DNA from: a virus
Lineage: Duplodnaviria > Heunggongvirae > Uroviricota > Caudoviricetes
Virus record (IMG/VR): IMGVR_UViG_3300032326_001208
Span: 1 to 64,000 of that record
Reading direction: 5' to 3' (one strand)
Length of the DNA stretch: 64,000 nt
Position numbers and translations under genes: made by a program
Notes under the pieces: model-generated
What the model was told of the DNA's origin: nothing
The model's database searches: none
Seen by the model: the letters and a program-made list of their open reading frames with translations, nothing else
In this document: positions 2,118-62,564 of the stretch, piece by piece
Position numbering within the stretch: the first letter of the stretch is position 1
Layout of the letters: the number at the start of each line of letters is the position of its first letter

Positions 2118-2254
2118 CAAGTGGGCCTGTTAGTATTAGGCCGCAAGAAGAATAGATGTTTTTCAATTACTAAACACTCAAGTACCCATACCGCTAGCGA
2201 TGGGCTAAGTAAGATACAATTTCGCACTGCGGGAAGTAGAATGCTTGAGATTAT

Positions 2255-2326
2255 TGCCCGATGATGTAATGGTTAGCATCACAGATTTTGATTCTGTTCG
2301 TATTGGTTCGAGTCCAGTTCGGGTAA
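2255..2326 (+). tRNA. tRNA-Gln (anticodon TTG)
   Basis: Acceptor tgcccga/tcgggta, anticodon arm acaga-ttttgat-tctgt, T-arm attgg-ttcgagt-ccagt. Confidence 0.6.
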
Positions 2327-2345
2327 CTCATTAAAAACAAATGTT

Positions 2346-2615: not shown

Positions 2616-2632
2616 TTATTAGAGTACTTATT

Positions 2633-2718
2633 GGAGAGATGGCAGAGTTGGTCTATCGCGCTTGACTTGAAATCAAGTGTACTGCAAGGTACCGTGGGTT
2701 CGAATCCTACTCTCTCCG
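2633..2718 (+). tRNA. tRNA-Ser (anticodon TGA), type II
   Basis: Acceptor ggagaga/tctctcc, anticodon arm cttga-cttgaaa-tcaag, long variable arm, T-arm gtggg-ttcgaat-cctac. Confidence 0.75.
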
Positions 2719-2731
2719 CATATATATTATT

Positions 2732-3265: not shown

Positions 3266-3339
3266 TGGTGGAACGGTAGACACGTCAGTTTTAGGAACTG
3301 ATATCGCGAGGTGTGAGAGTTCGAGTCTCTCTTGGGGTA
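3259..3339 (+). tRNA. tRNA-Leu (anticodon TAG), type II; weak acceptor stem
   Basis: D-arm GTG-GAACGGTAGA-CAC is the typical tRNA-Leu pattern. Anticodon arm tcagt-tttagga-actga, T-arm gagag-ttcgagt-ctctc. Acceptor gccctga/ttggggt has three G-U pairs, and the variable arm is poorly paired. Confidence 0.5.
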
Positions 3340-3355
3340 CAAACAACTTATTAAT

Positions 3356-8755: not shown

Positions 8756-10291
8756 ATGAAAATTGTTATAGTAGGTGGTGGAACAGCAGGTTGGTTGACT
8801 GCGGCATTCTTTGCAAATCAAAACCAATTATACAAAAAGGATAGATTAGAAGAAGTAGATGTTACTGTAATTGAAAGTTCTGATATACCAATTATCGGGG
8901 CCGGAGAAGGAACTACGGCATTAATGCAACAAATGGTAGCTACTCGTTTTTCTGCTTTGAAAAAAACCGAATTTAACTTTTTTAAAGGGTCACTTGCAGT
9001 GCCAAAATACGGAATACGTTTTAAAGATTGGAATGGGGTTGGTACTGAATTTTTAAGTCCTATACAACCTTCCGAAACTGCAGGATATAACGTAGATAGC
9101 GAATTTCTTGCTTCCTGTATGCAGGGTAATTTTTATGATTCATCCATAGCGGGACACTTTATGTCGAAAGGACTATCGGATTACCATATCAACGGTAAAG
9201 AAAATATGGGTATACATGGTTATCACTTTGATGCTCATAAAGTTGGTGAATATTTTAAAAGTGTTTGTATAGAAAACGGAGTAAAGCACATAGATGCCAA
9301 AGTTGATGATGTTAATATAAATCCAATAACAGGTGAATGTGATAGTGTAAAATTAGAAGGTAAGTTAATTCCGTTAGAGGCAGATTTTTGGATAGATTGT
9401 ACCGGATTTCATAGGAAGTTAATTAATAAAATGGGTGCAAAATGGATAAGTTATTCAAATGAACTTCCTGTAAATTCCGCACTACCTTATATACACAAAT
9501 ACGAAAAAGGACCTGAAGAAGCTAAATTAGAAACTTTGGCTTGGTCAATGCCGAATGGTTGGATGTGGCAAATACCAACGCAAGAAAGATATGGATGTGG
9601 TTATGTATATTGTGATAGATTTGTAAGTGATGATAAGGCGCTTGAAGAATTGGAAAAAACAACTGGTAGAAAAATACAACCGATAAGAAAATTAAGTTTT
9701 GATCCAGGTAGATTAGATAAATTTTGGATTAAAAATGTTGTAGCAATAGGGTTGTCATCTTCATTTTTAGAACCACTTCAAGCAACTTCAATCCATACAA
9801 CGTTATTGCAAGTGGATACGTTGTTCAGTAATTTCTTTTCTTTAAATAAAAAAGAATTTTTATTAGAACAAAATTTAAAACGATATAACAATATTATGGG
9901 AACTCTGGTAGATGAGTATAAAGACTTAATACGAATCCATTATCATAATAAACGAAATGATTCGGAATTTTGGAAGTTTTGTAATAACGAATTACCAATG
10001 AGTGATTTTGTAAGAGATATCATAGAGACTTGTCAATATAGAAGTCCTTCTACATTTGATTTTTCTAGTTACAATGGTTCATCTGGTTGGGGTGTTTGGT
10101 GTTGGACATTGTATGGATTGGAAACTCTAACCAAACCCGCAGTATTTAATACATTGAAAAAATATTCTCTTGTACATTACACAAAACACATGCACAATAA
10201 AATTATGCAGCGTGCGGATACGGGAGCTAAGTTATTACAAACACAGGAAGAATTTATAAAGGATTTAATGTCAGGAAAATTTTATAGATAA
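8756..10291 (+). CDS. FAD-dependent halogenase (tryptophan-halogenase family)
   Basis: IVIVGGGTAGW dinucleotide-binding motif, GAGEGT, and the flavin-dependent-halogenase signature WxWxIP (NGWMWQIP); about 510 aa as in PrnA/RebH. Confidence 0.75.
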   Translation: MKIVIVGGGTAGWLTAAFFANQNQLYKKDRLEEVDVTVIESSDIPIIGAGEGTTALMQQMVATRFSALKKTEFNFFKGSLAVPKYGIRFKDWNGVGTEFLSPIQPSETAGYNVDSEFLASCMQGNFYDSSIAGHFMSKGLSDYHINGKENMGIHGYHFDAHKVGEYFKSVCIENGVKHIDAKVDDVNINPITGECDSVKLEGKLIPLEADFWIDCTGFHRKLINKMGAKWISYSNELPVNSALPYIHKYEKGPEEAKLETLAWSMPNGWMWQIPTQERYGCGYVYCDRFVSDDKALEELEKTTGRKIQPIRKLSFDPGRLDKFWIKNVVAIGLSSSFLEPLQATSIHTTLLQVDTLFSNFFSLNKKEFLLEQNLKRYNNIMGTLVDEYKDLIRIHYHNKRNDSEFWKFCNNELPMSDFVRDIIETCQYRSPSTFDFSSYNGSSGWGVWCWTLYGLETLTKPAVFNTLKKYSLVHYTKHMHNKIMQRADTGAKLLQTQEEFIKDLMSGKFYR

Positions 10292-11085: not shown

Positions 11086-11265
11086 TTCATAACTCATTGA
11101 TTTTCAACACATTCATAACTCATTGATTTTCAATGGGTTATTTTTTGCCCAAAAATTCTTGATTGAGAATCAATTAGTTACGCTTTTAGGGGTAAAAATA
11201 GTCCCTTAAATATTTGGTAGATTGGTAACTATTTTGTAGTTTTAGGTATAATAAAAATTGAAAAT
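11086..11265. promoter_or_regulatory. Operator-rich intergenic region plus promoter
   Basis: Two direct copies of ttcataactcattgattttcaa, then the inverted element ttcttgattgagaatcaattagttacg, then atttgg-N20-ttttgtagttttaggtataataaaa directly upstream of the ATG. Confidence 0.55.
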
Positions 11266-15150: not shown

Positions 15151-15323
15151 CTCGTTGATAATCAATGAGTTATAAATCATTGAAAATCAATCAGTTACGC
15201 CCCCTAAAAAATTCTTGATTGAGAATCAATTAGTTACGTCTTTACCCCTAAAAATAACCCCTAAAATATTTGGTAGTTTCATGCCTTTTTTGTAGTTTTA
15301 CGATGTAATAAAACTTAAAAATT
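15151..15323. promoter_or_regulatory. Operator palindromes plus promoter
   Basis: ctcgttgataatcaatgag (16 of 19 positions self-complementary), then attcttgattgagaatcaattagttacg, then atttgg-N~20-ttttgtagttttacgatgtaataaaa upstream of the ATG at 15324. Confidence 0.6.
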
Positions 15324-19665: not shown

Positions 19666-19916
19666 CCTATTTTTAACCGATTTTAAGGGGTTTCTTGGTG
19701 TTGGTAGGGTTAGACTTCCTTTATTGGAAAATAACCCCTAAAATCACCTAGAAACCCTTTAATATGTAATCCGTTGATTATCAATGAGTTACAAATATTT
19801 GATTTTATTACCCATAAGTCATTGATTTTCAATAAACTTTTTTGAAGATTTTACCCCAAAAATTTGGTGGTCTCAATACAATTTTGTAGTTTTACTATGT
19901 AATAAAATTAAAAATT
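19666..19916. promoter_or_regulatory. Structured intergenic region with operators and promoter
   Basis: Long imperfect inverted repeat ttttaaggggtttct ... agaaaccctttaa, then ccgttgattatcaatgagttac and cattgattttcaa operators, then atttggtgg-N-ttttgtagttttactatgtaataaaa. Confidence 0.55.
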
Positions 19917-26193: not shown

Positions 26194-26419
26194 TAGTCAA
26201 TGACTTATAACTTATTGGTTCTCAATGAGTTATACATATAAACTGGCCTAATATGGTGGGTGGTATATTCACCTTACTTGTGTATTTTAGGGGAAATTTG
26301 GGGTGTTTCTGTACGTTTTGTCACCTTAAATTACCCTAATTCCCCAAAAAAACTTCAAAATAAATTTGGCCGTTTCAGGCTTTTTTCGTATCTTTACGTT
26401 GTATTAAAAATTTAAAGAT
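26194..26419. promoter_or_regulatory. Operator palindromes plus promoter
   Basis: ctgattgatagtcaatgacttat and ctcaatgagttatac, then tttttcgtatctttacgttg upstream of the ATG. Confidence 0.5.
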
Positions 26420-30977: not shown

Positions 30978-31901
30978 ATGGAATCAATGAGTGAAAGATT
31001 TGCTCGTTTAGAAAAAGAGCGTGAAGAACAATTACAACAATATAAATTAGAACAACAATTAAAAATTAAAAAGATGACAAAGATTATCGGTGGTAGTATC
31101 GTTGGATTATTTCTAATGGTATTTTTATTTAAGTCTTGCGAAAGAATTGATGCAGGACACGTGGGTGTTAAAGTAAACCTTTATGGTGATAACAAAGGTG
31201 TAAGTGATGTGACTGAAGTGACTGGTATGGTATTCTATAATCCAATTACACATTCAATCTATGAGTTCCCTACATTCATTCAACACAAAGAATATACAGG
31301 TGAAAATTCATTTGTAGTAAATAGTAAAGATGGTAGTGAGTTTCACGTTTCACCAATCATTAACTATTCAGTAAAGAGAGAAAAAGTTCCATCAATCTTT
31401 GCTAAATATCGTAGAAGTTTGGACCAAATAGAAGAAGGGTTTTTGAAAACATCTGTATTTGACGCATTCAGATTAGCAACTAACAAATATACAGCCGATG
31501 AATTAATTGGTAATAGACAAGCATATGAAGTTGAGGTTCGTAGAATATTAGAAGGACAATTGTTAGCAGAAGGATTCATTGTTAATCAATTCACATCAAA
31601 TCTAGTGTATCCTGAAACGTTCAAAGCGGCAATTGAAGCTAAGAATAACGCAGTTCAAGCGGCATTAAGAGCTGAGAATGAAGTTAAAACCGCCGAAGCA
31701 CAAGCAAAGATTAAAGTAGCAACTGCGGAAGGTAACGCACAAGCATTACTTACATCGGCAAAAGCTGAAGCTGAGGCAAATAGAATGAAGCAACAAACAT
31801 TGACACCATTGCTTATTCAATTAGAGTATGTACAAAAGTGGGATGGTAAGTTACCAGTATATGGTGAAGTTCCACAACTATTTAGAAACATTCAAAAATA
31901 A
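30978..31901 (+). CDS. SPFH/band-7 (HflK/stomatin-like) membrane protein
   Basis: TM helix, then IDAGHVGVKV, then an Ala/Glu-rich coiled-coil tail (AENEVKTAEAQAKIKVATAEGNAQALLTSAKAEAEANR) typical of HflK/HflC. Confidence 0.7.
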   Translation: MESMSERFARLEKEREEQLQQYKLEQQLKIKKMTKIIGGSIVGLFLMVFLFKSCERIDAGHVGVKVNLYGDNKGVSDVTEVTGMVFYNPITHSIYEFPTFIQHKEYTGENSFVVNSKDGSEFHVSPIINYSVKREKVPSIFAKYRRSLDQIEEGFLKTSVFDAFRLATNKYTADELIGNRQAYEVEVRRILEGQLLAEGFIVNQFTSNLVYPETFKAAIEAKNNAVQAALRAENEVKTAEAQAKIKVATAEGNAQALLTSAKAEAEANRMKQQTLTPLLIQLEYVQKWDGKLPVYGEVPQLFRNIQK

Positions 31902-31925
31902 AATAAACCACAAAAAACAAAAAGT

Positions 31926-32711
31926 ATGAAAAGTAAATTACACATTTTAGTATTAGGACTAGTTATTGTATTCAGTAGCTGTACCGTAGTGAGACAAGGT
32001 GAAGTAGGTGTAAAAAGAACAATTGGTAAGATTCAGCAAAAACCTTTAACCGAAGGTGCTAGATTATTCAATCCGTTACTTACTACAATCATTAAACTTC
32101 CAACCCGAACTGTAAACATGGAAGTTAGATTGCCATTACCTTCAAAAGAGGGTTTGACGGTTCAATCTGAAATTTCTATATTATATAGATTAGATGGACA
32201 ATCAGCACCTAATGTAATTGAGCAGTTAGGAACTAATTATGAGCAAGTAGTAATTCTACCTGTATTCCGTTCAGCAGCAGCTGATGTATCTTCACAATAT
32301 TTCGCAAAGGATATGCATACCGGACAAAGAGCGGTTATTGAAAAGGATATTAAAAAGTTAATGGATTCGCAACTTAAAGGTAGAGGGTTCACTATTGAAT
32401 CAGTTCTATTAAAGAGTATCGTTCTACCAACTGGTTTGGCTAAAGCAATTGAAGCAAAATTAGAGGCAGAGCAAGATGCACAAAGAATGGAGTTCACACT
32501 TAACAAAGAGAGACAGGAAGCAACAAGAAGAATTATTGAAGCAGAGGGTGTTCGAAATTCACAAAAGATTATTTCAGAAGGTTTGACACCAATGTTATTA
32601 CAATTCAAAAGTATTGAAGCATGGTTGAAACTTTCAACATCACCTAATTCAAAAGTTATTATAACAAGCGGTAACCAACCATTTGTAATTAGTCCTGAAT
32701 CACAAAAATAA
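31926..32711 (+). CDS. SPFH/band-7 (HflC/prohibitin-like) lipoprotein
   Basis: Lipobox VFSSC, then VVRQGEVGVKRTIGKI ... EAKLEAEQDAQRMEF ... RRIIEAEG. Confidence 0.7.
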   Translation: MKSKLHILVLGLVIVFSSCTVVRQGEVGVKRTIGKIQQKPLTEGARLFNPLLTTIIKLPTRTVNMEVRLPLPSKEGLTVQSEISILYRLDGQSAPNVIEQLGTNYEQVVILPVFRSAAADVSSQYFAKDMHTGQRAVIEKDIKKLMDSQLKGRGFTIESVLLKSIVLPTGLAKAIEAKLEAEQDAQRMEFTLNKERQEATRRIIEAEGVRNSQKIISEGLTPMLLQFKSIEAWLKLSTSPNSKVIITSGNQPFVISPESQK

Positions 32712-43563: not shown

Positions 43564-44004
43564 ATGAATAAGAAAGTCACAAAGAAGTCAGCACCTAAAA
43601 AGGTAGCTAAGAAAGTAGTTAAGAAAGCAGCCACTAAAAAGGTTGTAAAGAAAACAACAAAGAAGCCCGCTACAAAGAAGGCTAAGAGTATTAAGACCAT
43701 CCAAGCATTAAGAGAAGGTTTTAAAGCTGGTAGTAAAAAGAACCCGTTACCGCATGTTAAGTACCTGAACTGCGCAATATCGGATGTAAGTAATGAGAAG
43801 TTTCCAGAGATGGTTCAAATCACAATGGGACCGGCAAAGATTATGGATGACCTTAGCGGACGTAGGTATGTGAATTTAGAGTACGCAAAGATTGCTATTG
43901 ATGAGGTACACGGTTTTAACATCGTAGCAAAAGGTTTAACAAAAGTAGCTGATGAGTTAGCGGATCTTGGTATCGCTATGCCAGCTGTAGATGTATTGAA
44001 ATAA
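43564..44004 (+). CDS. Lys/Ala-rich histone-H1-like DNA-binding protein
   Basis: N-terminal 45 aa are KKxxKK / AKK / VKK repeats; globular C-terminal half. Confidence 0.5.
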   Translation: MNKKVTKKSAPKKVAKKVVKKAATKKVVKKTTKKPATKKAKSIKTIQALREGFKAGSKKNPLPHVKYLNCAISDVSNEKFPEMVQITMGPAKIMDDLSGRRYVNLEYAKIAIDEVHGFNIVAKGLTKVADELADLGIAMPAVDVLK

Positions 44005-44024
44005 TCAAATAAAAATTAATTAAT

Positions 44025-44282
44025 ATGAATTTACCGCCAAAAGGTTATTATCGTCAACTATTGAGTGACTTTCCCCAAGTCCGCATTGCGTTTACACATA
44101 CCCCGATTGTTGGGTGCCGTACAATAGATGCTGGACCGTTTATTGAAGTATTAGAGCAATCTACTGACCAGTATGCTAAATTCTATTCCGATGGTTTGCG
44201 TAAGGGTAACTTGGTTACTATTGTGGAAAATAGTGTGGATAGGGTATATAGCAACAATGGTGAGTTGTATTTTACATCCTAA
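44025..44282 (+). CDS. Hypothetical protein
   Basis: 85-aa ORF. Confidence 0.45.
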   Translation: MNLPPKGYYRQLLSDFPQVRIAFTHTPIVGCRTIDAGPFIEVLEQSTDQYAKFYSDGLRKGNLVTIVENSVDRVYSNNGELYFTS

Positions 44283-44298
44283 AAATAAATTTGGTAAT

Positions 44299-44496
44299 AT
44301 GGGAAATTATTCGTATATTTGTATAGAAGTTGAAGGTGACAAGTGGGAAGCCATGCAAGAGTTAATGAAAGATATGAGTATGGTATCACCCCAAATAACA
44401 GAAGCAATGGTAGATAGGGTTATTGCTGACCTTGAACGTAAGGAAAAAATAAATTTGGAAGTATCGGAAATATTTCGTATCTTTGATATTCTATAA
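44299..44496 (+). CDS. Hypothetical protein
   Basis: Trimmed to MGNYSYICIEV; flanked by cgtatatttgta and cgtatctttga boxes. Confidence 0.4.
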   Translation: MGNYSYICIEVEGDKWEAMQELMKDMSMVSPQITEAMVDRVIADLERKEKINLEVSEIFRIFDIL

Positions 44497-44582
44497 AGAT
44501 AAAGGGTAAGGACCACCCCTATTAATAAGTTGGTCCGAAATAAACTAAACCTAGCGGTGTAAGAGGTCAACCGTTCAAAACT

Positions 44583-44780
44583 ATGGCTAATAAGTCAAAA
44601 AAAGCAACAGCAAAGCGTGGAAACATTTACGAAACAGTTTCTAACAACATCCAAAAGATTACACGTCCATCTGGTACTGTATCTTATCGTGTGAGAGTTA
44701 CCGAAGATGGTATCACTTATTCTCAATATGAGACTTCATTAAAGAAAGCGAAGATGCTTCGTAATGAGTGGGTTGGTTAA
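44583..44780 (+). CDS. Hypothetical basic protein
   Basis: 65-aa ORF. Confidence 0.4.
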   Translation: MANKSKKATAKRGNIYETVSNNIQKITRPSGTVSYRVRVTEDGITYSQYETSLKKAKMLRNEWVG

Positions 44781-44801
44781 TCTTAACTGATAAATTTATT
44801 A

Positions 44802-44838
44802 GGGACCGGCTAGTTAAAGCCCGCCGGTCCCAATTTTT
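44802..44838 (+). terminator. Rho-independent terminator
   Basis: gggaccggctagttaaagcccgccggtccc stem followed by aatttttt. Confidence 0.75.
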
Positions 44839-44907
44839 TAAGACAACCAATACTTATACCTGTTATTTCAATAGGTAAACAACAAAAACAAATATAAAAC
44901 AACAAAG

Positions 44908-45078
44908 ATGAAAAAAGTAATCGCAATTTTAGTAATCGCTACTTCATTGGTAGCTTGTGGTGGTTCAACTTCAACAGAAGTAACTACCGATTCAACAGCA
45001 GTAGCAGTAGATACAACAGCAGTAGCTGTGGATTCAACTGTAGCTCCAGTAGCAGCTGATACTACTATCGTTAAGTAA
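44908..45078 (+). CDS. Small lipoprotein (56 aa)
   Basis: MKKVIAILVIATSLVACGG lipobox, then a Thr/Val/Ala-rich stretch. Confidence 0.4.
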   Translation: MKKVIAILVIATSLVACGGSTSTEVTTDSTAVAVDTTAVAVDSTVAPVAADTTIVK

Positions 45079-45100
45079 TTAAGATAGGTTAGTAAATAAT

Positions 45101-45128
45101 TAGCCGGTCCGATGTGACCGGTTTTTTT
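45101..45128 (+). terminator. Rho-independent terminator
   Basis: agccggtccgatgtgaccggttttttt. Confidence 0.7.
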
Positions 45129-45299
45129 ATGTCCCTAATGTACCCAATGTACCACAAGTACCCCGGTACCTGGGCCCAGATGGACTGGTGGGGTTAATAT
45201 ACTAATTAACACACTAACATGCTACATATTATATTTTGAACGTTTTTCTGTGTAGTTTTACCCGTTTTTTATCAAGTTATCCACATTTTCCGGACAGGT

Positions 45300-45508
45300 C
45301 TTCTGGAATCGGTGTAGGGGCTGAGTGAAATACCCCTAATCTATACTGAATCGTAACTCATTGAAAACCAACGTTTTATAAGTCATTGATAACCAATCCC
45401 TTACATAAGTCATTGATTCTCAAGCAAGAATTTTTAAAATAAGTCCCAAAAAGTTTGGCCAGCTCGGAAAATACCCCTATCTTTATTATGTAATAAAAAT
45501 GATAAGAT
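45300..45508. promoter_or_regulatory. Operator repeats plus promoter
   Basis: cgtaactcattgaaaacc, ataagtcattgataacc, ataagtcattgattctcaag, then tttgg-N-ctttattatgtaataaaa upstream of the ATG at 45509. Confidence 0.5.
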
Positions 45509-45817
45509 ATGAATACCGAAAATCCCTTTAAGAGTTTCTCAGCCTCTAAAATGAGTGAAAACCCCCGTTTTAACGTATCAGTAGAATATACTGACTTTAT
45601 GGGTAATACCCACCGTATCCAATGTAAGACTCGTAAAGCCTTCAATGGTGCGAGAGAATTCCTTTCAATGTTCAAAAGTGAAACAACCAAGATCAACGCG
45701 ATCTTGAGTGAGTACCCAGTTGTTATGGGTAAATTCCCTAAAAAGTTCCATAAGGAAATCAAATCGGACTTACAGTCTGCTGGTTTCGGTATGTGTTCTA
45801 AATACCTTTTGAAGTAA
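45509..45817 (+). CDS. Hypothetical protein
   Basis: 102-aa ORF. Confidence 0.5.
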   Translation: MNTENPFKSFSASKMSENPRFNVSVEYTDFMGNTHRIQCKTRKAFNGAREFLSMFKSETTKINAILSEYPVVMGKFPKKFHKEIKSDLQSAGFGMCSKYLLK

Positions 45818-45842
45818 TTTTTAAACCCCTTAAATTATCTAT

Positions 45843-46142
45843 ATGTATAATCAAAATTGTGACCTGTTAGTATCGGCATTCTCAAACAAAGAGTTGAAAA
45901 CCTTGGTTATGGCCTTGGCCGCATACAATAAGTTGGACAGACGTGAGACACGTTCTGACCTTATGGAAAAATTAGTGAATGGATTTCTACGCTCGAATGA
46001 GTTGGAAGCGGAAGTGATTGAACGTATTGTCCGTAAAAATCCATACGATAATAGTATCCCTAAATCATATTGGGGTACAGCCAATGGTAAAGCATATTTG
46101 GCAGAGATGGAAGAAGCTAGTACAAAGGCTTATTCTTATTAA
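45843..46142 (+). CDS. Hypothetical protein
   Basis: 99 aa; preceded by aaaccccttaaattat. Confidence 0.5.
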   Translation: MYNQNCDLLVSAFSNKELKTLVMALAAYNKLDRRETRSDLMEKLVNGFLRSNELEAEVIERIVRKNPYDNSIPKSYWGTANGKAYLAEMEEASTKAYSY

Positions 46143-46161
46143 TCCATAAACCCCTTATACA

Positions 46162-46374
46162 ATGAGTGAAAAATTATTGACTGTAAAGTTTGAGTCCGAA
46201 ATCCAGATACTATCATTAAAGAAGTTACTATCTGCAACCTGTGGTGGTGGCCGTGTCCGTCCACGTGGTAGACATAGTAACCGAAAGGCTGTGTTGGGTA
46301 ATGCATATAGACCCGGTACCCAAAACGATATACCCTGGCGGAAAGCTGAGACAGTAACATTTTATTTATTATAA
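46162..46374 (+). CDS. Hypothetical Arg-rich protein
   Basis: 70 aa; locally GC-richer; preceded by aaaccccttatacaATG. Confidence 0.35.
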   Translation: MSEKLLTVKFESEIQILSLKKLLSATCGGGRVRPRGRHSNRKAVLGNAYRPGTQNDIPWRKAETVTFYLL

Positions 46375-46386
46375 AAAATTAAAGAT

Positions 46387-46659
46387 ATGACAGTAGCTGA
46401 ACAAATGAGACAGGACCTATTAGATATGGTCCAAAAACACGATTATTCACATATGTTTTCCGATAGCCATAATGTTTGGCAAGCTGGATATCAGATTGAG
46501 AATCAGATTAAAGCAAAGATACATGCTCTATTCACATACCATAGAGAAGATATGGAAGCACTATATAATGAAGTGCTCGAGCTTGTACCTGAACAGTACA
46601 TAGATGGTCTGACACATAAGACAATAAAGAACTGGTTTAGCACATACATAGGTAGTTAA
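46387..46659 (+). CDS. Hypothetical protein
   Basis: 90-aa ORF. Confidence 0.45.
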   Translation: MTVAEQMRQDLLDMVQKHDYSHMFSDSHNVWQAGYQIENQIKAKIHALFTYHREDMEALYNEVLELVPEQYIDGLTHKTIKNWFSTYIGS

Positions 46660-47099
46660 AAGATATTATCCTCTTGAATGGGGAGTGTTTGGTGATTTGA
46701 TGTTTATTAAATGAGCAAGTTGACTGAGGGGACTGACTGGGAATCGGGTCCCCTTTCTTGTGTCTATAACTTACCCACATAGGCGGACTACCTTAACAAA
46801 AAATAATTTACTTCAATCAAAAACACCATCTCACGCAACGTAGGCGCCATAAGGGTTGTAGAGGACACGTATATAGGGAGAAACATCAATCCTCTGGAAC
46901 GTAGGTGGCATAAGGACTGTAGGGGACTGAATTTCTTGGAACCGGAAAATAAATATTTTGACTAGAGGGCCCCCTAACCCCTTCTCGTATCGAGCCCAAG
47001 TTTTTCGCTATACGAGATTTTTTTATATTACCCCTAATGGTATATAGTCTTTATTACTATTATTGGTTAGTCCTTATTGGTACATTGGTTAGTCCTTAT

Positions 47100-47448
47100 C
47101 AAAATAGGGGTTTCATAAGTGGTTGATTATCAATACGTTATAACTCGTTGATTATCAATATGTTAGGATTGGGGTGGGGTTTAGGGCTTGGATGTATTCG
47201 TATATATTCGTATTTTTGGGGTGTTTCTTGGGGTTATTTTTATCAGGTAGGGTTAAGATATGGACGAGGTGAAATAGGGGTTAAAATCGAACGGAAAGGG
47301 ACGAATATATAAAGTGTTGATTTTCAATGACTTATGTATGGGGTTAAAATATATCCATAATCGGTTGATTTCCAATCGAGAACTTTTAGGTAGAATTTGG
47401 TGGTCTCAATTAATTTTCGTAATTTTAGGTATAAAAGTTAAGTTAGAT
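47100..47448. promoter_or_regulatory. Operator repeats plus promoter
   Basis: gtggttgattatcaatacgttataactcgttgattatcaatatgtt; gtgttgattttcaatgacttatg; ggttgatttccaatcgag; then atttggtgg-N-ttttcgtaattttaggtataaaag. Confidence 0.5.
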
Positions 47449-54670: not shown

Positions 54671-54839
54671 AAAAGATTTGGCCGTTTGGAAAAATCTTCG
54701 TATATTTGTTATAACAAAGTACATAAAGTATGTTTGTGGGTGGGGATTTCCCCTAAAACTCAAAGGTCTATTTCGTTTCATACCTGTTGACAAACAAAAC
54801 TGAAACACTAAACATTAAAAGCCGGAAGGCACTATTATT
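54671..54839 (+). promoter_or_regulatory. Promoter with a long leader
   Basis: atttggccgtttggaaaaatcttcgtatatttgttat (TTTGG-N19-TATATTTG) about 120 nt upstream of the ATG at 54840. Confidence 0.55.
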
Positions 54840-56477
54840 ATGGTAAGTAAAACAAAAACTACCAATTCATCTATTATTGATGAGTTGAAGGATGCTGTGA
54901 TAGACTATCAAAAAGCATCAAGCGTAGCAGCACAACAAAAAGTAAAAAAAGCTGCAAAATTTGAAAAAGAAGTTGAAACACTTCTAAGAAAGTATGGGTT
55001 GTTGCCCAATCAAAAAGATAGTAAAGGAGATTATATCTCACTTACTGGTTCTCCATTCAAAACTAAATTCTTTCCGAATTACATCACAACCGATGCGGGT
55101 GTAAAGATGGTACATCAGAAATTAACCGATTTCTGGGTTCCAAAGTATAACCTATTGGTTGAATGTACAACTTCAATATCAGACACGAAGGAGAAAGAGT
55201 TTTATATCTCAAAACAATCCGTTGATGAGATGAATAAACAAAATTACGGTGGTATAACACATGATTATGTTGTATTTGTGCAATCACCCGCAGCCGATAT
55301 TATGGCTAAAAGATTGGAGAAAGCAGGAGTGAAGATAATATATTCATTACCTAATATTGAAAAATATATTGCTGAAAAAGCATCGGAAAAAATTGAAATT
55401 AAACAATTGAATGTTGGCGTTATTGAATACCATCAAATAGATGATATTGTAAAAAATACGGTAAATAGAGAAACTAATTGGCCGCATGTTTGGAACTTAG
55501 TAGAATCAATACTAACTATATTAGGAAAATCCAAAGTACAAGTAGGAATTATTAGACCATTTACTGCAATCAAAGTTAATGGTGAGGTTTGTTTAGTAGA
55601 TGCACATCACCTTAGAGAAGCAGTTAAAATTGTAAGGGATATGTATGGATATCAAATAGATAAAGTACCTGTTATGATATTGGCACATCTTAACAATGTT
55701 CATCCAGAAGAGGTGACTCAACTTATGAGTTCTATTAATGTAATTGTATTGAATTGGGATAATTTTGGTTATGTGAAAAGTTGGAAAACAACTTATGAAA
55801 TGACAAAAAATGATGAAGCATTATATCCTTATAAGAAATTATTTGATGATATGATTGAATTATCCAAAGATTTAAAATCTAAAGATTATACAACCGGTGG
55901 TGTAAACCTTCAGGCGTATTGTATTGAAGATTCCGAATCCATTTCAAAGTGGGGAGAGAATCTAAAAAATATGAAAACCGGTAATTTACGTTTTGATGAA
56001 GAACATTATGAAAACGTGTTGGTTAAAATTAAAAACGCAACAAAGACTTTTCACAAAGCTATTGTTGCACATAGAGAGGCTATGGCAAAACATCCTAGTC
56101 ATAGAAAAGGTGGTAAGTTGATTATCATATCCGGAAATGGAGCTAAGAAAGTAACCGAATCAATTGATTTAGTATCGGCTAAAGCAAACTATCTTAGACA
56201 ATTCGCAACATCTCTAAAATCTCTATATTTCACAAATAGAGATGTGTTTGATAAAGCGGTTGATAATATTAATGAGGGGTTCTGGAAAAAGGTTGGATTA
56301 CCTACACCAACGTTAAACGAAATGAACGTTATTGAATATGATTCAATCAGAGAGTTTCCAAAGAAACCAAATGAACTCAAAGAGTTTATTGAGGGTTCTT
56401 TTACAAAAGATAAAGTAACAAACATTAAAAATTGGAACAAAAGCCAGTTAGCAAAATATGTAACTTTTATGTATTAA
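54840..56477 (+). CDS. Large hypothetical protein (545 aa)
   Basis: Long uninterrupted ORF with its own promoter and terminator; no motif recognised. Confidence 0.6.
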   Translation: MVSKTKTTNSSIIDELKDAVIDYQKASSVAAQQKVKKAAKFEKEVETLLRKYGLLPNQKDSKGDYISLTGSPFKTKFFPNYITTDAGVKMVHQKLTDFWVPKYNLLVECTTSISDTKEKEFYISKQSVDEMNKQNYGGITHDYVVFVQSPAADIMAKRLEKAGVKIIYSLPNIEKYIAEKASEKIEIKQLNVGVIEYHQIDDIVKNTVNRETNWPHVWNLVESILTILGKSKVQVGIIRPFTAIKVNGEVCLVDAHHLREAVKIVRDMYGYQIDKVPVMILAHLNNVHPEEVTQLMSSINVIVLNWDNFGYVKSWKTTYEMTKNDEALYPYKKLFDDMIELSKDLKSKDYTTGGVNLQAYCIEDSESISKWGENLKNMKTGNLRFDEEHYENVLVKIKNATKTFHKAIVAHREAMAKHPSHRKGGKLIIISGNGAKKVTESIDLVSAKANYLRQFATSLKSLYFTNRDVFDKAVDNINEGFWKKVGLPTPTLNEMNVIEYDSIREFPKKPNELKEFIEGSFTKDKVTNIKNWNKSQLAKYVTFMY

Positions 56478-57486: not shown

Positions 57487-57514
57487 AAGGGAAGTAATTA
57501 CACTTCCCTTTTTT
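57487..57514. terminator. Bidirectional rho-independent terminator
   Basis: aaaaaagggaagtaattacacttcccttttttatttt has A-run / stem / T-run symmetry; it closes both the + operon and the convergent minus-strand cassette. Confidence 0.75.
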
Positions 57515-57517
57515 ATT

Positions 57518-57910
57518 TTAATCTAATAATAATTTTTCATCACCATCATCGTTCTGATTTACATACGCCGATGTAGTTGTAGTAGTTCCTGTTAATGTAT
57601 ATGCTCCACCACTACCATTTGATGTTGTATAAGTGATTGTACTTCCGCTTGGAAAACTTGTTGAACTAAATGTACCACCTGTTGTAATAGTGCCACTTAA
57701 CGGAGTTATTGTTGGTGAAGATATAGTTGTCCATCCACCACCAATTTGATTAGGAGTTCCCCAACCACCAATACCAATAGGAGTACCAATAGTATCATTC
57801 ACTTCTTTTAGCTTCTCTCTAATTGTATCAAATTGCTTTTTACTAATATCATATCCGTTGATAGCATCTAAAAATCCTTTCAACCATTGTGTATATTCTT
57901 GGCTAGTCAT
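57518..57910 (-). CDS. Gly/Thr-rich protein (helical N-terminus, low-complexity GGW/TTT tail)
   Basis: 130-aa ORF. Its own minus-strand promoter lies immediately upstream: TTTGgtataatcaaaaacattttgTATCTTTGtaaaaataaattATG. Confidence 0.5.
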   Translation of the reverse strand: MTSQEYTQWLKGFLDAINGYDISKKQFDTIREKLKEVNDTIGTPIGIGGWGTPNQIGGGWTTISSPTITPLSGTITTGGTFSSTSFPSGSTITYTTSNGSGGAYTLTGTTTTTSAYVNQNDDGDEKLLLD

Positions 57911-57961
57911 AATAATTTATTTTTACAAAGATACAAAATGTTTTTGATTATACCAAATAAA

Positions 57962-57993
57962 AACCCCCATATTTCTATGAGGGTTTGTTTGAT
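57962..57993 (-). terminator. Putative terminator for the minus-strand genes
   Basis: Reverse complement reads aaaccc-N14-gggttttta ttt. Confidence 0.35.
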
Positions 57994-58025
57994 TAGCTAA
58001 TATCAACTTTGTCTTTAATTTACTA

Positions 58026-58139
58026 TTACTTCTTTAGGAATCCTTTAGCGAATTTTACTAAGAAAGGAACAGCGAAGTATCCAACTAATCCACCTACAAG
58101 GAAGTGAAAATTGAATACGAAATCTACAATTGTTTGCAT
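58026..58139 (-). CDS. Possible 37-aa hydrophobic peptide
   Basis: MQTIVDFVFNFHFLVGGLVGYFAVPFLVKFAKGFLKK read by eye; unsupported otherwise. Confidence 0.2.
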   Translation of the reverse strand: MQTIVDFVFNFHFLVGGLVGYFAVPFLVKFAKGFLKK

Positions 58140-58290
58140 GTTTCTATTTGTTTAAGTTAATCAAAATAACATAATAATAAAACAAGCGCTAATTTGTTTT
58201 AATAAATATCGTACAAAATGGTATGGTAACATTAACTATCCACATTCTGATAAACAACTTTAATTGTGATAGTTAATAAAATATATTATA

Positions 58291-58830
58291 CTATAATAGT
58301 GATATAATAATATTGGCTGTATCATTATTGATTGGTACTTTAAAATACTCAACATCGTATCTTTCAAGCATAGAAACAATTTCTCTATCAATCTCTATAC
58401 TTTCTTCTAACTTTTGAAATCTTCCATCTTCTTGATACATCGCAGGGTCTCTTTCCAAAACTATATTTAATGAATCGTAATTAGAATGCAAATCAACAAT
58501 AAACTCGTCAAACTTATATCCATAGAACATCGCAGGATATTCTGGTTCTTCATTGTATCTATCTTTATAGATTAATCCAAATAGAATTGGTGAATCAACA
58601 ATAATATAATCAACCTGTCCATATAGACGAGAAATGTTACGGTGTTGATTAGCGGTAATATAAAATTGGTCTTTAACTGCGTAAACATTTCTTTCCCAAG
58701 CTTGTAACTTTGGAAATTCATAAGGCATCTCAACATTGTATCCTGCCTTTTTCATCTCATAATACAAACCCGCTGCTTGTGTGGATTTACCAATTGAAGG
58801 TCCACCGAATAGATTAATAATTTTGCTCAT
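58291..58830 (-). CDS. P-loop NTPase, probable nucleoside/nucleotide kinase (AAA_28/NadR-like)
   Basis: Walker A LFGGPSIGKST at the N-terminus, Walker B-like IIVDSP; about 180 aa, like small kinases. Confidence 0.55.
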   Translation of the reverse strand: MSKIINLFGGPSIGKSTQAAGLYYEMKKAGYNVEMPYEFPKLQAWERNVYAVKDQFYITANQHRNISRLYGQVDYIIVDSPILFGLIYKDRYNEEPEYPAMFYGYKFDEFIVDLHSNYDSLNIVLERDPAMYQEDGRFQKLEESIEIDREIVSMLERYDVEYFKVPINNDTANIIISLL

Positions 58831-58898
58831 AATACAAAGGTACGAAAATTTATTGAAAGGACAAAATAAAGGGGAGAATTTCTTCTCCCCATTTATTA

Positions 58899-61800
58899 TT
58901 AGTTAAAGATATATCTTACACCCAATTGAATTTGGTAGCGAGAACTAAATCCTACGTTATCTCTGAATGAATCAGTAAACGGAACTTTGTTTCTTCCATC
59001 TAAATAAGGGAATGAGAATACCGGAGTTTTTCCATCAGTATCCAATCTTACAAATGTAAGTGGAGTCATTGTTGTTGGTGTTTGGTTTACACCCCAATTT
59101 TTACTTAGGAAGTTTGTGAAGTTATAGATATCAGCTGTGAATCTTAAAGTATGTTTAGTATCTTTATATTTGATATAAACATCTTGTGTAAAGTTCAAGT
59201 CTAATCTATTAACCCAAGGTAGAACTAATGCTTGTCTTTCTGCAAATTGACCTCTACGAGAGTTAAGGTATTTGTTGCCAGAAATGAAAGCATCTAATTG
59301 ATTCCACAATTCAGCCTGTGTACGGGTATCAGCTACACCACTTACTGCACTTGCATTTACCAATTTAATTTGAGATGCATCGGCTGGAACGAACATCAAT
59401 TCATTACCATTGAAACCATCATTGTTTAAATCACCTGCGTATGTGTACGATAGTGAAGATTGTAATGGGTTAGGAGAACCTTCATACAATAAACCAAATG
59501 AAGTTCTTGTATTCTTAAAGAACTCTTTACCATATACCAATGAACCTACAATTCTATGAGGTAAGTAGTTGTTTGAAAAACCTGCTTCAAAGTTATTAGG
59601 GTCAGTTGATGTTGGTCTAGCTCCCCACATTGTAAATGCGGTTGAACCATTGATTGTAGCATCTTTTGCTGTTTGACGAGTATAAGATGCGTTTACTGCT
59701 AAGTTCTTAAATTGTCTTTGAACTTGTAATGTACCAAACAATACATAACCAATGTTAGCATTGGTCATATAGATTGCATTACCAATATTTGGATTGGTTG
59801 GTGTTTGTGCGGTTCCGGTTGCATCATAAACTGAACGTTTAATAAAACGAGTTTGTCCATTTGCTAAAGTTATATTACCAGTTGAAGGTAATGCAACGTT
59901 TTGGAAAACGGTAGCGTTAATGTTCTTAATATATGTACCTTCCGCAGTTACAGTCCATCCTAACACTTTCTTATCAACTGCTAAAGTTGATTTCCAAACT
60001 TGCGGATATTTGTAATTAGGGTCAGTTACGTTAAGTGAATACGCTCTTGATAAACCTGGTGTTGGAGTTGGTCTATATGCATCAATGTTTGGATTAAACA
60101 TATATCCTTGTCCATTTGTAATAGAACCGAATAATGCCATACCCGTATTAGATGCTTGGTTAGAAATCCAAACGAAAGGTGGAGGGCCTTGGAATAATCC
60201 TGTACCACCACGAACTTGTAAAGTTTGGTCATTATACACATCCCAGTTGAAACCAATTCTAGGCGATAATTGTAAAGCATTTTTAGGTGCTAAACCTGTG
60301 TTTAATCTTACACCACCATAGAATCTACTAAGTGTATCAACTACTGGATTGAAAAGGAAGTTATCAGCAAATGCTACATAATCCGCTCTCAAACCATAAG
60401 TGATTGTTAAGTTATCTTTTACTCTAAATTTATCTTGAGCAAATAAACTTAATTCAGTATTCTTTGGACCAACTAATGGGAATTCACCGGTTAGTGACCA
60501 AGACAAATCATACACAGCTGCTGGTTTTGTACCTGCTGCCGATGCGTAGAAATCAGCTAAACTATTGAAACGGAATGCACCTGCGTAGTTAGGTGAGAAG
60601 CCATTCTTATATTGTTTAAATGAATTTTGTGTACCAAATGTAAATTCATGCTTACCTTTGTATAAGTTGAAAATATTATTCAATTGAATTACATCTGAAT
60701 TCAATGCGTTACCATAAGTGAATCTTTCATAACCAAAAGTTGTGAAAGGTAAACCATTACCATCTAATATGTCCACTTGTGGAAAATTACCAGCTGTTAG
60801 TGTACCTCTGAAATCTCTTAATTTAGTGTATCCAATTTGTAATTTATTGTTAGCTGAATTAGAGAATCTAGTGTTTAACTCACCGATGATGATGTCTGCG
60901 TTGTTATTAATTGTATAACCACCACCATAAAACGGCATTGAAGTTGTACTTGGTCTTCTACCATTTGATGAGTTTACTGATTGTGAGTTAGATGCTGGAA
61001 TATCTGCTGATGAACGTAATAGTGTATATTTCAATGAGAATGAATTTTTACTATTAATATTCCAATCTAATTTAGTAGTCAATCTTTTTGATACTGAACC
61101 ATATTGGTATCCTTGATATGCACCTGGATCGTAATTATATTTTTCAATTAAGAACTTTCTCAATGCATCCAAATCAGATGCTTTAGCTTGAGATACGTTG
61201 ATACCATTTGGTGTATTATTAGCGTCAGCTGCTACCCATTGTGTACCAGGTTCCATTCTACTTTCTTGTTCACCATTTACAAAGAAGAACAATTTGTTTT
61301 TAACAATTGCTCCACCTGCGGTGAATCCTTTTAAATCATAAGTGAAATCTTGCTTTGGTAAAGTTACATCACCAACTTTGTAACCCTGTAAATCTTTATT
61401 CTTAAAGAATTGGTAAACCGAACCGAATGATTGGTTCTTACCACTACGAGTTACGGTGTTGATTGAACCACCCGCGAAACCACCGAACTTTACATCAAAA
61501 GGTGAAACGTTAACTTGGATTTGCTCAATCGCATCTAATGAGATTGGTTGTGCTCCAGTTTGACCACCCAATGTACCATCACCTAAACCGAAAGAGTTAT
61601 TGAAGTTAGCTCCATCCAAAGTAACGTTATTCAATTGAGAAGATAAACCACCAAATGATAAGTTGTTTTGCGAAGGTACTAATTTAACTAAATCTTTCCA
61701 GCTTCTATTAACGTTTGGTATTCTCTCAATCAATTGTCTGTTGATAATCTCTTGAGAACCATTACGGCTAGAGTTAAATACCTTACTTTGTCCTGAAGTT

Positions 61801-62159
61801 ACTACTACTTCTTTCAAAGTTGTTGATGCTTCTTTCAAAATAAAGTTTGCCTTGTGTGACTGACCCAATAACAATGTAATATCGTCTTGATGTTCTGCTT
61901 TGAAACCAATTGATGTTACGTGAATTGAATACGGTCCACCGATTTTCAAGTTTGGCAAGTTGTATCTACCATCAGTACGAGAAGAAGTTGTGTACTTCGT
62001 ACCCGTTGGCTGGTGAGTAGCTACAATTGTTACACCTGCTAATCCGGCTTTTCCATCAGAAACCAAACCCTGAATTTCAGAGGTAGTTTCTTGCGCACTT
62101 GCTCCAAATGATAATAGTGTTATCACTACCATAAGGAGAAATTTTCCGATTTTTTTCAT
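58899..62159 (-). CDS. TonB-dependent outer-membrane receptor (with carboxypeptidase-regulatory-like N-domain)
   Basis: Signal peptide MKKIGKFLLMVVITLLSFGASAQE; IQGLVSDGKAGLAGVTIVATH...GRYNL (CarbopepD_reg-like); plug-domain motifs; about 800 aa of alternating beta-strand pattern; 1086 aa total. Confidence 0.85.
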   Translation of the reverse strand: MKKIGKFLLMVVITLLSFGASAQETTSEIQGLVSDGKAGLAGVTIVATHQPTGTKYTTSSRTDGRYNLPNLKIGGPYSIHVTSIGFKAEHQDDITLLLGQSHKANFILKEASTTLKEVVVTSGQSKVFNSSRNGSQEIINRQLIERIPNVNRSWKDLVKLVPSQNNLSFGGLSSQLNNVTLDGANFNNSFGLGDGTLGGQTGAQPISLDAIEQIQVNVSPFDVKFGGFAGGSINTVTRSGKNQSFGSVYQFFKNKDLQGYKVGDVTLPKQDFTYDLKGFTAGGAIVKNKLFFFVNGEQESRMEPGTQWVAADANNTPNGINVSQAKASDLDALRKFLIEKYNYDPGAYQGYQYGSVSKRLTTKLDWNINSKNSFSLKYTLLRSSADIPASNSQSVNSSNGRRPSTTSMPFYGGGYTINNNADIIIGELNTRFSNSANNKLQIGYTKLRDFRGTLTAGNFPQVDILDGNGLPFTTFGYERFTYGNALNSDVIQLNNIFNLYKGKHEFTFGTQNSFKQYKNGFSPNYAGAFRFNSLADFYASAAGTKPAAVYDLSWSLTGEFPLVGPKNTELSLFAQDKFRVKDNLTITYGLRADYVAFADNFLFNPVVDTLSRFYGGVRLNTGLAPKNALQLSPRIGFNWDVYNDQTLQVRGGTGLFQGPPPFVWISNQASNTGMALFGSITNGQGYMFNPNIDAYRPTPTPGLSRAYSLNVTDPNYKYPQVWKSTLAVDKKVLGWTVTAEGTYIKNINATVFQNVALPSTGNITLANGQTRFIKRSVYDATGTAQTPTNPNIGNAIYMTNANIGYVLFGTLQVQRQFKNLAVNASYTRQTAKDATINGSTAFTMWGARPTSTDPNNFEAGFSNNYLPHRIVGSLVYGKEFFKNTRTSFGLLYEGSPNPLQSSLSYTYAGDLNNDGFNGNELMFVPADASQIKLVNASAVSGVADTRTQAELWNQLDAFISGNKYLNSRRGQFAERQALVLPWVNRLDLNFTQDVYIKYKDTKHTLRFTADIYNFTNFLSKNWGVNQTPTTMTPLTFVRLDTDGKTPVFSFPYLDGRNKVPFTDSFRDNVGFSSRYQIQLGVRYIFN

Positions 62160-62564
62160 GTGTTTTGTTTTTTGTTTAAATTGTAACCATTAAAAATAAA
62201 AAAGGTATAGAGATTACTCCCCATACCCTTTTAGAGTTTATGACTTTTTACAGTCAAATTCGTTATATATAAATTTGTATATGTATATTCTACATTCATA
62301 GGCTTTGAAACATTTTTTACCCTTATAACTATATCCATTTTTTGTAAAAGTTTAACAAATATACGAAAAATTTTCCACCAAACCAAATATTTTGAGATAA
62401 ATTATTGAAGGTCAATGACTTATAAGTGGTTGATAATCAGATATTTATAAAAAACTCAAAAAAGTTCATAATTTGTTGATTTTCAATGACTTATGAGGGT
62501 ATTTTTATGAAAAAAAATTTGGAAAATTGGAAATTTTTTCGTATTTTTACATAGTAAAAAGATT
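62160..62564. promoter_or_regulatory. Divergent promoter / operator region
   Basis: Minus-strand promoter (reverse complement of about 62340..62400: tttggtttggtggaaaatttttcgTATATTTGtta). Operators ggtcaatgacttataagtggttgataatcagat and tgttgattttcaatgacttatg. Plus-strand promoter ttttttcgtatttttacatag. Confidence 0.55.

Follow-up and report, generated by a model that had tools for sequence, protein, structure and literature searches.

A conserved TonB-dependent transporter gene with a terminator-bearing leader in a clade of large T4-like phages of Bacteroidota

Positions 1 to 64,000 of the IMG/VR virus record IMGVR_UViG_3300032326_001208 (here called the window; 64 kb out of a phage genome that is likely longer than 200 kb) contain a minus-strand cassette at 57487-62564. 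The cassette encodes a TonB-dependent transporter (TBDT) of 1086 amino acids (aa), a P-loop kinase of the AAA_28 family, a 37-aa open reading frame (ORF) and a Gly/Thr-rich protein. It belongs to a clade of large T4-like phages infecting low-GC Bacteroidota. The TBDT is read here as an auxiliary transporter which sits in the outer membrane of the infected cell and uses the TonB of the host; this reading is given a probability of about 0.5. The phage probably changes what its infected host imports.

The transporter gene lies at 58899-62159 on the minus strand, and its product was characterised with Pfam, AlphaFold2 and Foldseek. The protein has a signal peptide (residues 1-22), a CarboxypepD_reg domain (residues ~23-110), a TonB-box-like segment, LKEVVVT (residues 115-121), a plug (residues ~136-244) and a 22-strand barrel. 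The N-terminus, MKKIGKFLLMVVITLLSFGASA/QE, was read as a signal peptide from its sequence pattern; the same basic-hydrophobic-AxA/QE pattern is retained in all seven of the relatives examined. Pfam matches cover the CarboxypepD_reg domain (PF13620; E 4.8e-15, residues 29-108), the plug (PF07715; 25.1 bits against a gathering cut-off of 23.9, residues 144-231) and the barrel (OMP_b-brl_4, PF25183; 136.9 bits, residues 236-1017). A preliminary description of this DNA had proposed a full-length 1086-aa receptor with a signal peptide and a CarboxypepD-reg domain, which the Pfam matches and the reading of the sequence bear out. Twenty-two long strands were assigned in the AlphaFold2 model, which has a pLDDT of 79. 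The LKEVVVT segment sits in a low-confidence linker of this model; L115, E117 and V118 are at least 90% conserved in the phage and bacterial homologues, and the LxEVVV region is common to both. When the model was compared with the PDB by Foldseek, the top 50 matches were all TonB-dependent transporters. The best were FusA (4zgv, E 2.5e-29) and YddB (6ofr, E 5e-25), and TM-scores against transporters were 0.45-0.50 when normalised by the query and 0.65-0.68 when normalised by the target.

Judged from sequence, the transporter is not of the SusC type. In NCBIfam, searched for a SusC/RagA signature, the only match was to PRK13483 and was sub-threshold, at 18.7 bits where the cut-off is 927. The Foldseek list has SusC structures no higher than ranks 40-48, and no SusD-family gene is present in the window or in the related loci examined. 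Neither the TBDT nor the Gly/Thr-rich protein nor any flanking ORF was given a family by NCBIfam or PHROGs. When the TBDT and the kinase were searched against the PDB by sequence, and also by profile, the outcome was no matches or noise (for example, prion protein), and an exact-sequence look-up of the window protein and of P0001 found nothing on record.

The preliminary description placed the cassette in a phage-like region, and the gene content of the window agrees. It includes a T4-type ATP-dependent DNA ligase (closest to those of Caulobacter phage Cr30 and Sinorhizobium phage phiM12), a Kyanoviridae Gp96 domain, Cpn10, cyclophilin and 12 tRNAs. Two SPFH proteins, two PNP_UDP_1 phosphorylases, a tryptophan halogenase, a CTP_transf_like protein and a phosphoribosyltransferase are also encoded. 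The Pfam survey covered the 111 plus-strand ORFs of the window and found 30 families; statements about family content rest on the 25 that were listed. Relatives include IMG/VR contigs of 207-274 kb. The same cassette in the same synteny is present on more than 10 independent contigs of 15-299 kb from JGI, ENA, NCBI and IMG/VR, flanked by SnoaL_2 on one side and by DUF7717-like, DEAD helicase, DUF3310, PhoH, NT5C and HSP20 genes on the other. Every genomic context retrieved for a phage TBDT showed this cassette between these phage genes. A comparison of codon usage and GC with the flanking genes, proposed in the preliminary description, found the transporter gene indistinguishable from phage genes: its GC3 is 0.236 (0.251 +/- 0.057 in phage genes), and its codon usage correlates with that of the phage gene pool at 0.89 (0.83-0.94 for other large phage genes). 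Conserved synteny and phage-like codon usage exclude both a stretch of host chromosome between two mobile elements and a chimeric assembly. Since GC3 and codon usage fall within the range of phage genes, the gene appears to be an old acquisition that is now adapted to the phage. A megablast search with 56-64 kb gave no match among the INPHARED phages, and tblastn with the TBDT gave a single match of 31% identity, on a 6-kb 'Bacteriophage sp.' contig which carries no annotation proving it viral.

The transporter is strongly conserved among these phages. The best 120 database relatives share 83-100% identity with it, and the alignment of 121 phage TBDTs has 1086 columns and zero gaps. Entropy in this alignment is 0.11 bits in the plug, 0.24 in the barrel strands and 0.28 in the eleven surface loops; single loops range from 0.15 to 0.38 bits, and none is hypervariable. 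Pairwise dN/dS against seven relatives is 0.10-0.14 at a dS of 0.28-0.89. Because there are no indels, dN/dS is low, the plug is near-invariant and the loops are about as conserved as the strands, the function of the protein is judged to be maintained in the phages.

Beyond this group, an exhaustive search of cluster representatives, with follow-up, gave a ladder of identities which leads to bacteria. At 69% identity there is a more distant phage lineage in which the Gly/Thr-rich gene lies downstream of the transporter gene (directly after it in L021) and in which the kinase gene was not detected. Homologues with 59-63% identity are on clearly bacterial contigs, where the neighbours include an alpha/beta hydrolase, a class IV aminotransferase, a membrane-fusion protein, a DUF1080-like protein and an ABC system of the LolD/FtsX type; the cluster members are from 'Bacteroidota bacterium' metagenome-assembled genomes and from contigs of up to 506 kb. 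The 45-48% tier consists of Sphingobacteriales and Chitinophagaceae, Mucilaginibacter and Pedobacter among them, and the 34-36% tier of Muriicola and Allomuricauda; P0243, a homologue with 48% identity, has no match in IMG/VR. The preliminary description had suggested a BLAST search for the closest host homologue, and the answer is a set of orphan TBDTs (59-63% identity) in uncultured low-GC Bacteroidota. In the contexts examined, the bacterial homologues are orphans amid housekeeping genes, without SusD, halogenase or any conserved partner. These neighbourhoods gave no clue to the substrate, since rplI, lpd, purM and the aminotransferase, hydrolase and ABC/FtsX genes vary between taxa. The stepwise ladder down to bacterial homologues indicates that a phage ancestor took the transporter from an orphan transporter of Bacteroidota and that it has been kept since. 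Cellular origin, phage residence and selection, the marks of a host-derived phage auxiliary gene, are all indicated by the sequences. A search for paralogues among the ORFs of the window gave nothing relevant to the cassette.

The transporter gene has a long 5' leader (62160-62355, minus strand) of ~196 nt from promoter to ATG. Promoters were sought with the Bacteroidota pattern TTTG-N18-21-TAnnTTTG, which has 15 matches in the window against 3.1 expected. The pattern scan places the leader promoter at 62356-62387 on the minus strand (TTTGG-N-TTCGTATATTTG). It was matched in 14 of 18 distinct phage leaders, including that of the 69%-identity lineage, and in these 14 the distance from promoter to ATG is 190-209 nt. 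For the other such promoters in the window, the next long ORF is 4-131 nt away, and in most cases 4-42 nt. The stretch 54677-54840 holds a promoter (54677-54708) and a second unusually long leader, which has 131 nt with a GGGTGGGGATTTCCCC hairpin and precedes a gene for a 545-aa protein without a family match (54840-56477).

Within the transporter leader, a terminator-like hairpin with a T-run (62199-62232, minus strand; -18.3 kcal/mol) lies ~42 nt 5' of the start codon. All 18 distinct phage leaders have a T-run 40-45 nt from the ATG and, 5' of it, a stem of 8-11 bp anchored by G+C. The hairpin is kept in 14 of 14 distinct variants despite differing stem sequences, and inner positions show 3-5 pair types; the variants were folded one by one and their pairs tabulated, so pair registration is approximate. 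RNAalifold on a MAFFT alignment of the whole leader recovered just six pairs of the terminator stem, because that alignment is not structure-aware. The hairpin was not seen 5' of the bacterial TBDT homologues examined. Rfam, searched over 57.0-63.2 kb with E up to 1, gave nothing in the leader; four weak matches elsewhere in that range are far below gathering scores and were taken as chance.

An upstream ORF occupies 62231-62338 on the minus strand; it has 35 codons, or 22 when counted from an internal ATG, and its stop codon directly adjoins the terminator hairpin. An equivalent ORF of 25-40 codons is found in 17 of the 18 phage leaders, where it ends 11-27 nt 5' of the T-run with its stop at or within the 5' arm of the stem; a comparable ORF occurs in 1-11% of shuffled leaders. 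The encoded peptides share a loose common core, N-I-I/L-x-Y-T-x-x-N-S. The geometry of promoter, upstream ORF and terminator is thus conserved across the phage leaders. Nearly all transporter leaders also have the invariant octamer ATAGTTAT ~25 nt downstream of the -7 box (here 62325-62332, minus strand). The octamer occurs again at 1061-1068, directly after another promoter (1028-1059). Its partial resemblance to the -7 element TAnnTTTG means that it could act close to the promoter, as a pause element or a binding element.

On this arrangement the leader looks like an attenuator. A ribosome completing the upstream ORF would sit over the stem, so that transcription could read through, and uncoupled transcription would lead to termination. 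As an alternative, a phage antiterminator could act on an arrangement like that of lambda pR'-tR'. The attenuator reading is weakened because conservation of the upstream-ORF peptide is moderate and because one of the 18 leaders, that of L060, has no upstream ORF. It is a possible but doubtful extension that a widespread lytic jumbo-phage clade keeps a near-core, working TBDT gated by a leader-peptide attenuator, so that import would be tuned to the translational or nutrient state of the cell. If true, active outer-membrane transport would be a class of host function under virus control, and this would be the first phage-borne attenuation control in Bacteroidota. No account of this phage clade or of its leader was found in the open-access literature searched.

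The steps proposed for the auxiliary transporter are all inferred. In the infected cell, the RNA polymerase of the host, together with its primary sigma factor, would start at the consensus Bacteroidota promoter. Transcription would then pass the terminator in the ~196-nt leader, and read-through would set the dose or timing of the transporter; the read-through fraction would probably depend on translation of the upstream ORF, with a phage antiterminator as the alternative. Sec would export the precursor, the Bam machinery of the host would insert it, and TonB-ExbBD of the host would supply the energy; the 25 listed of the 30 Pfam families in the window include neither a TonB nor an Exb family. 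The transporter would import the substrate of its host orthologue and so supply more of a limiting nutrient for phage replication. The preliminary description offered three functions for the receptor, and a nutrient-uptake auxiliary gene fits best because the TonB box, plug and surface loops are under purifying selection; receptor masking and lysogenic conversion found no support. Iron had also been named as a possible substrate, and nothing found points to it.

Several points weigh against the uptake reading. The bacterial neighbours give no clue to a substrate, and there is no match to a curated NCBIfam family. To make a protein of 1086 aa for the outer membrane is slow and expensive during a lytic cycle, and given the stability of such proteins it is hard to see what the cell would gain from extra copies. 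Because of the terminator in the leader, full-length transporter mRNA could be scarce. Finally, the transporter and the kinase adjoin in two lineages, which could mean a functional link between them.

The cassette is the only minus-strand block of the window, as the preliminary description had stated. The window consists mostly of small plus-strand genes, with a GC content of ~32% and a GC skew of ~+0.2; the skew drops to between -0.08 and +0.04 only at 57-62 kb. The non-nested minus-strand ORFs of at least 100 aa are at 57518-57910, 58291-58830 and 58899-62159, and there are no others. The far end of the cassette is marked by an intrinsic terminator at 57487-57514, which separates it from a plus-strand gene of 202 aa. 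This hairpin is symmetric and lies between an A-run and a T-run, so that both strands have a T-run. Folding on the two strands gave -19.5 and -19.8 kcal/mol, with z-scores of -8.5 and -6.4, in agreement with the earlier suggestion that it is bidirectional.

Inside the cassette, the Gly/Thr-rich gene has a promoter at 57926-57957 (minus strand; TTTG-N20-TATCTTTG), with the start codon 15 nt downstream. The preliminary description had correctly given this gene its own promoter, with a spacer of N19 that is one base short. The kinase promoter is at 58835-58865 (minus strand; TTTG-N19-TACCTTTG), with the start codon 4 nt past the box. A terminator hairpin at 58871-58890 (-16.7 kcal/mol, z -4.5) follows directly 3' of the transporter stop codon, and another at 57961-57986 on the minus strand (-17.2 kcal/mol, z -5.3) ends the unit of the kinase and the small ORF. 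Three promoters and four hairpin terminators thus fall within a span of 4.9 kb in the cassette, whose units are insulated by promoters and terminators of their own. It is terminator-dense in comparison with the plus strand, which has ~4 convincing terminators in 57 kb. Because each unit has a separate promoter and hairpin terminator, the cassette is three insulated transcription units and not a single operon; the transporter gene does not share a unit with the kinase gene, the small hydrophobic ORF or the Gly/Thr-rich gene. The 37-aa ORF, the hairpins at 58871-58890 and 57961-57986, the kinase promoter and the transporter leader were absent from the preliminary description.

The kinase gene (58291-58830, minus strand) encodes a P-loop nucleoside/nucleotide kinase of 179 aa. 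The match to AAA_28 (Pfam E 2.2e-9) confirms the P-loop kinase noted earlier; the protein also matches PHROG 2107, 'thymidylate kinase' (E 1e-11), and its Walker A motif is GGPSIGKST. In Foldseek searches, the AlphaFold2 model (pLDDT 88) matched the kinase domain of NadR with TM 0.67-0.70 and thymidylate kinases with TM 0.59-0.66, a ranking which does not set the two apart. Homologues with 59-63% identity are found on other phage-like contigs which lack the transporter, typically beside an Endonuclease_NS gene. Homologues with 34-41% identity are found in many cultured jumbo phages, where some are annotated as thymidylate kinase. The kinase is most likely a phage nucleotide-salvage enzyme and not an obligate partner of the transporter. 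A 115,485-bp phage-like contig from JGI sample 3300059473 has a 1104-aa transporter of the same architecture directly 5' of an AAA_28 kinase with 67% identity. Some 8 kb further there is a second transporter-like gene (Plug and OMP_b-brl_3, >750 aa); from these sequences, capture of transporters by these phages may be recurrent.

The 37-aa ORF (MQTIVDFVFNFHFLVGGLVGYFAVPFLVKFAKGFLKK; 58026-58139, minus strand) lies inside the kinase unit, between the kinase and Gly/Thr-rich genes. It is strongly hydrophobic, and its product is a candidate small membrane protein. The DNA which holds it is 100% identical in four relatives (L001-L003 and L011) and ~86% identical in L012; the comparison was read one base out of frame, and these identities therefore describe DNA and not the peptide. 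The ORF was not detected in more distant relatives.

The third gene (57518-57910, minus strand) encodes the Gly/Thr/Ser-rich protein of 130 aa, present in the ORF listing as the preliminary description had it. Its first 40 residues are helical and its C-terminal tail is acidic; Pfam, PHROG and NCBIfam gave no match. Orthologues with 60-68% identity occupy the same position in L014, L015, L017 and L021. In other relatives it is replaced by a protein of 262-288 aa (L001 14329-15117, L004 13966-14832, L006 14191-14985), which has a conserved N-terminal domain of 125 aa, a Thr/Gly/Asn-rich middle and a C-terminal CxxC...CxxC zinc ribbon. The two proteins have the segment ITYTT..G.SG..TLT in common, and a low-complexity segment seems to have been shuffled between them.

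The position of the kinase beside the transporter raises the question of a coupled salvage module, in which the TBDT would import a nucleoside-like compound such as nicotinamide riboside and the kinase would phosphorylate and so trap it. The two genes adjoin in the 83-100% identity clade and on the phage-like contig with the 67%-identity kinase. In structure the kinase is most like the ribosylnicotinamide-kinase domain of NadR, and two PNP_UDP_1 phosphorylases, a phosphoribosyltransferase and a CTP_transf_like protein are encoded elsewhere in the window. However, thymidylate kinases score nearly as high as NadR, each of the two genes has its own promoter and a terminator separates them, and each occurs without the other: the kinase in many phages, the transporter in the 69% lineage. 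An inner-membrane transporter of the PnuC type is not among the 25 listed of the 30 Pfam families. Such a module is considered unlikely. An Oar-like role without import, as a TonB-powered exit route (for the Gly/Thr-rich protein, for example) or in outer-membrane remodelling, is very unlikely. It would suit the presence of the Gly/Thr-rich gene after the transporter in every phage lineage examined, including the 69% lineage which lacks the kinase, but that protein has no signal peptide when read from its sequence, and some relatives have a different protein instead. Oar is required for secretion of the PopC protease in Myxococcus, and the arrangement of CarboxypepD_reg, plug and barrel matches the Oar subclass (PMC6434023); the same architecture is, however, the commonest among Bacteroidota transporters (PMC6434023) and hence non-diagnostic. 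FusA and YddB, the best structural matches, handle protein cargo, but the ranking is weak at TM-scores of 0.45-0.50 (query) and 0.65-0.68 (target).

TonB-dependent transporters are classic phage receptors, and interference with them by phages is known: T5 Llp blocks FhuA (PMC9586334). The TBDT could in principle replace or dilute its host orthologue, which would be the receptor of this phage or of competing phages; the result would be superinfection exclusion, or progeny spared from being lost on infected cells and debris. Relative to the nearest bacterial homologues, the phage protein has indels in loops L1, L3, L5, L7, L8 and L10. Within the phage clade, however, there is no hypervariability: the loops (0.28 bits) differ little from the strands (0.24 bits), and dN/dS is low over the full length. 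Hypervariable loops would be expected of a masking or exclusion factor, though they do not strictly define one. Moreover, the best-conserved parts are the plug and the TonB box, which a passive decoy does not need, and an extra transporter leaves the resident receptor in place, with no phage function identified that would remove it. With no positive evidence for it and no hypervariable surface loop, receptor masking or superinfection exclusion, as raised in the preliminary description, is judged quite unlikely. The other function raised there, a lysogenic-conversion moron expressed from a prophage of a temperate phage for the benefit of the lysogen, is highly improbable. The layout of promoter, gene and terminator, the orientation opposite to the flanks and the host-type promoter are all moron-like. 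However, promoters of the same type also drive the tRNA cluster and phage genes on the plus strand. The window has a T4-like gene content, and there is no integrase among the 25 listed of 30 Pfam families in the 64 kb. The contigs of the relatives (200-299 kb) stand free, and the 10-kb flanks that were examined showed no bacterial sequence.

The intergenic region at 62160-62564 had been described as a divergent promoter/operator region with operator motifs found across the element. It does hold two copies of such a motif (ATTGA-N3-TCAATGACTTAT; 62404-62494), both on the plus strand, 5' of the diverging plus-strand operon and forming a direct repeat with a spacing of 71 nt. The motif TCAATGACTTAT has 12 sites in the window against 0.9 expected, and its extended form (ATTGA-N3-TCAATGAsTTAT) contains a palindrome. 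Copies of ATTGA-N3-TCAAT followed by GAsTTAT are often tandem pairs or triplets with a spacing of ~26 nt; they lie at 11089-11126, 15162-15183, 19814-19825, 26197-26233, 45378-45416, 47324-47335 and 62404-62494. The motif looks like a binding site for a phage regulator or a phage-specific promoter element.

Other features of the window lie on the plus strand or far from the cassette. Twelve tRNA genes (Glu, Thr, Asp, Arg, two Leu, Ala, Met, two Gly, Gln and Ser) occupy 4-3340 on the plus strand with small ORFs between them, and one is preceded by the Bacteroidota-type promoter at 1028-1059. At 8756-10291 there is a tryptophan-halogenase-family protein of 511 aa (Pfam E 2.6e-88; PHROG 2928), which is host-like and for which no link to the transporter was found. 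The preliminary description had suggested that it partners the transporter; this is rejected because it is 49 kb away, on the other strand, and because no halogenase lies beside the transporter in the bacterial contexts examined. Two adjacent paralogous SPFH/Band 7 proteins (30978-32711; 307 and 261 aa; PHROG 200) are membrane scaffolds which could be related to envelope remodelling. The region 44000-47300 has a GC content of 0.36-0.385, a GC skew of ~0, few long ORFs and three copies of the regulator motif, with two strong plus-strand terminators (T-runs at 44834 and 45122) and promoters at 44290-44321 and 44454-44485; it may contain non-coding RNAs or be a regulatory hub.

The known auxiliary genes of phages mostly encode cytoplasmic enzymes. 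Here a complete outer-membrane transporter of 1086 aa, coupled to an energy source, is held under strong purifying selection across many related phages, which suggests that certain large phages also reprogram the outer-membrane traffic of the host. Since phages carry and keep a copy, the phage gene would mark a widespread orphan transporter of Bacteroidota as limiting for phage yield, which offers a handle for finding its substrate. The leader, with its upstream ORF and terminator, would be a compact regulatory element in a phylum in which transcription attenuation has been little studied. The cassette is also an easy metagenome marker for the phage clade.

TonB-dependent receptors have been annotated in phages before. 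For Mar_Mega_1 and the megaphage LR745206, PMC9723777 reads a putative SusC as an auxiliary gene for carbohydrate uptake. The Mar_Mega_1 protein (UniProt A0A8D9FQQ5; Michniewski et al. 2021) likewise has a TBDT fold, comes from a large phage presumed to infect Bacteroidota and was given an auxiliary-uptake reading; it is the sole transporter-fold match in the BFVD library of viral structures. However, it has 805 aa and is annotated as SusC-type, whereas the present protein has 1086 aa and is non-SusC, and identity over the structural alignment is ~10%. Clade-wide conservation, purifying selection and a dedicated leader, described here, are not reported for Mar_Mega_1 in the passage of PMC9723777 examined. 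T5 Llp (PMC9586334) is also a phage gene concerned with a TonB-dependent outer-membrane protein; it is a small lipoprotein which plugs the host receptor, whereas the gene of the present phages encodes an entire transporter in which the transport elements are conserved. The N-terminal domain, plug and barrel are also those of Oar of Myxococcus xanthus (PMC6434023), a likeness of architecture, which is generic in Bacteroidota.

FusA (4zgv) and YddB (6ofr), the best structural matches, are protein importers from Proteobacteria which share 11-13% identity with the phage TBDT and lack the CarboxypepD_reg domain; the ranking among transporters is too flat for their substrates to be transferred to it. 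The orphan CarboxypepD_reg-Plug-OMP_b-brl_4 transporters of Bacteroidota are closer, with the same domain order, length, LxEVVV region and C-terminal RY(I/L)FN, and without SusD. They differ in that their neighbours are housekeeping genes and that the phage-type leader terminator was not seen in those examined. Control by promoter-proximal terminators is known from lambda pR'-6S RNA-tR', with antitermination by Q, and from translation-coupled attenuators such as that of E. coli pyrBI; to our knowledge, translation-coupled or terminator attenuators are poorly documented in Bacteroidota. As in these systems, the coding region in the phages is preceded by a strong promoter, then a leader of ~150-200 nt, and an intrinsic terminator close to its start; in addition, a short ORF ends at the terminator stem. 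A Q-like protein or binding site was not identified. What is new in the present phages, compared with the phage-borne receptors annotated earlier, is the non-SusC type of the transporter, its long-term purifying selection, its clade-wide conservation, its traceable host origin and its leader.

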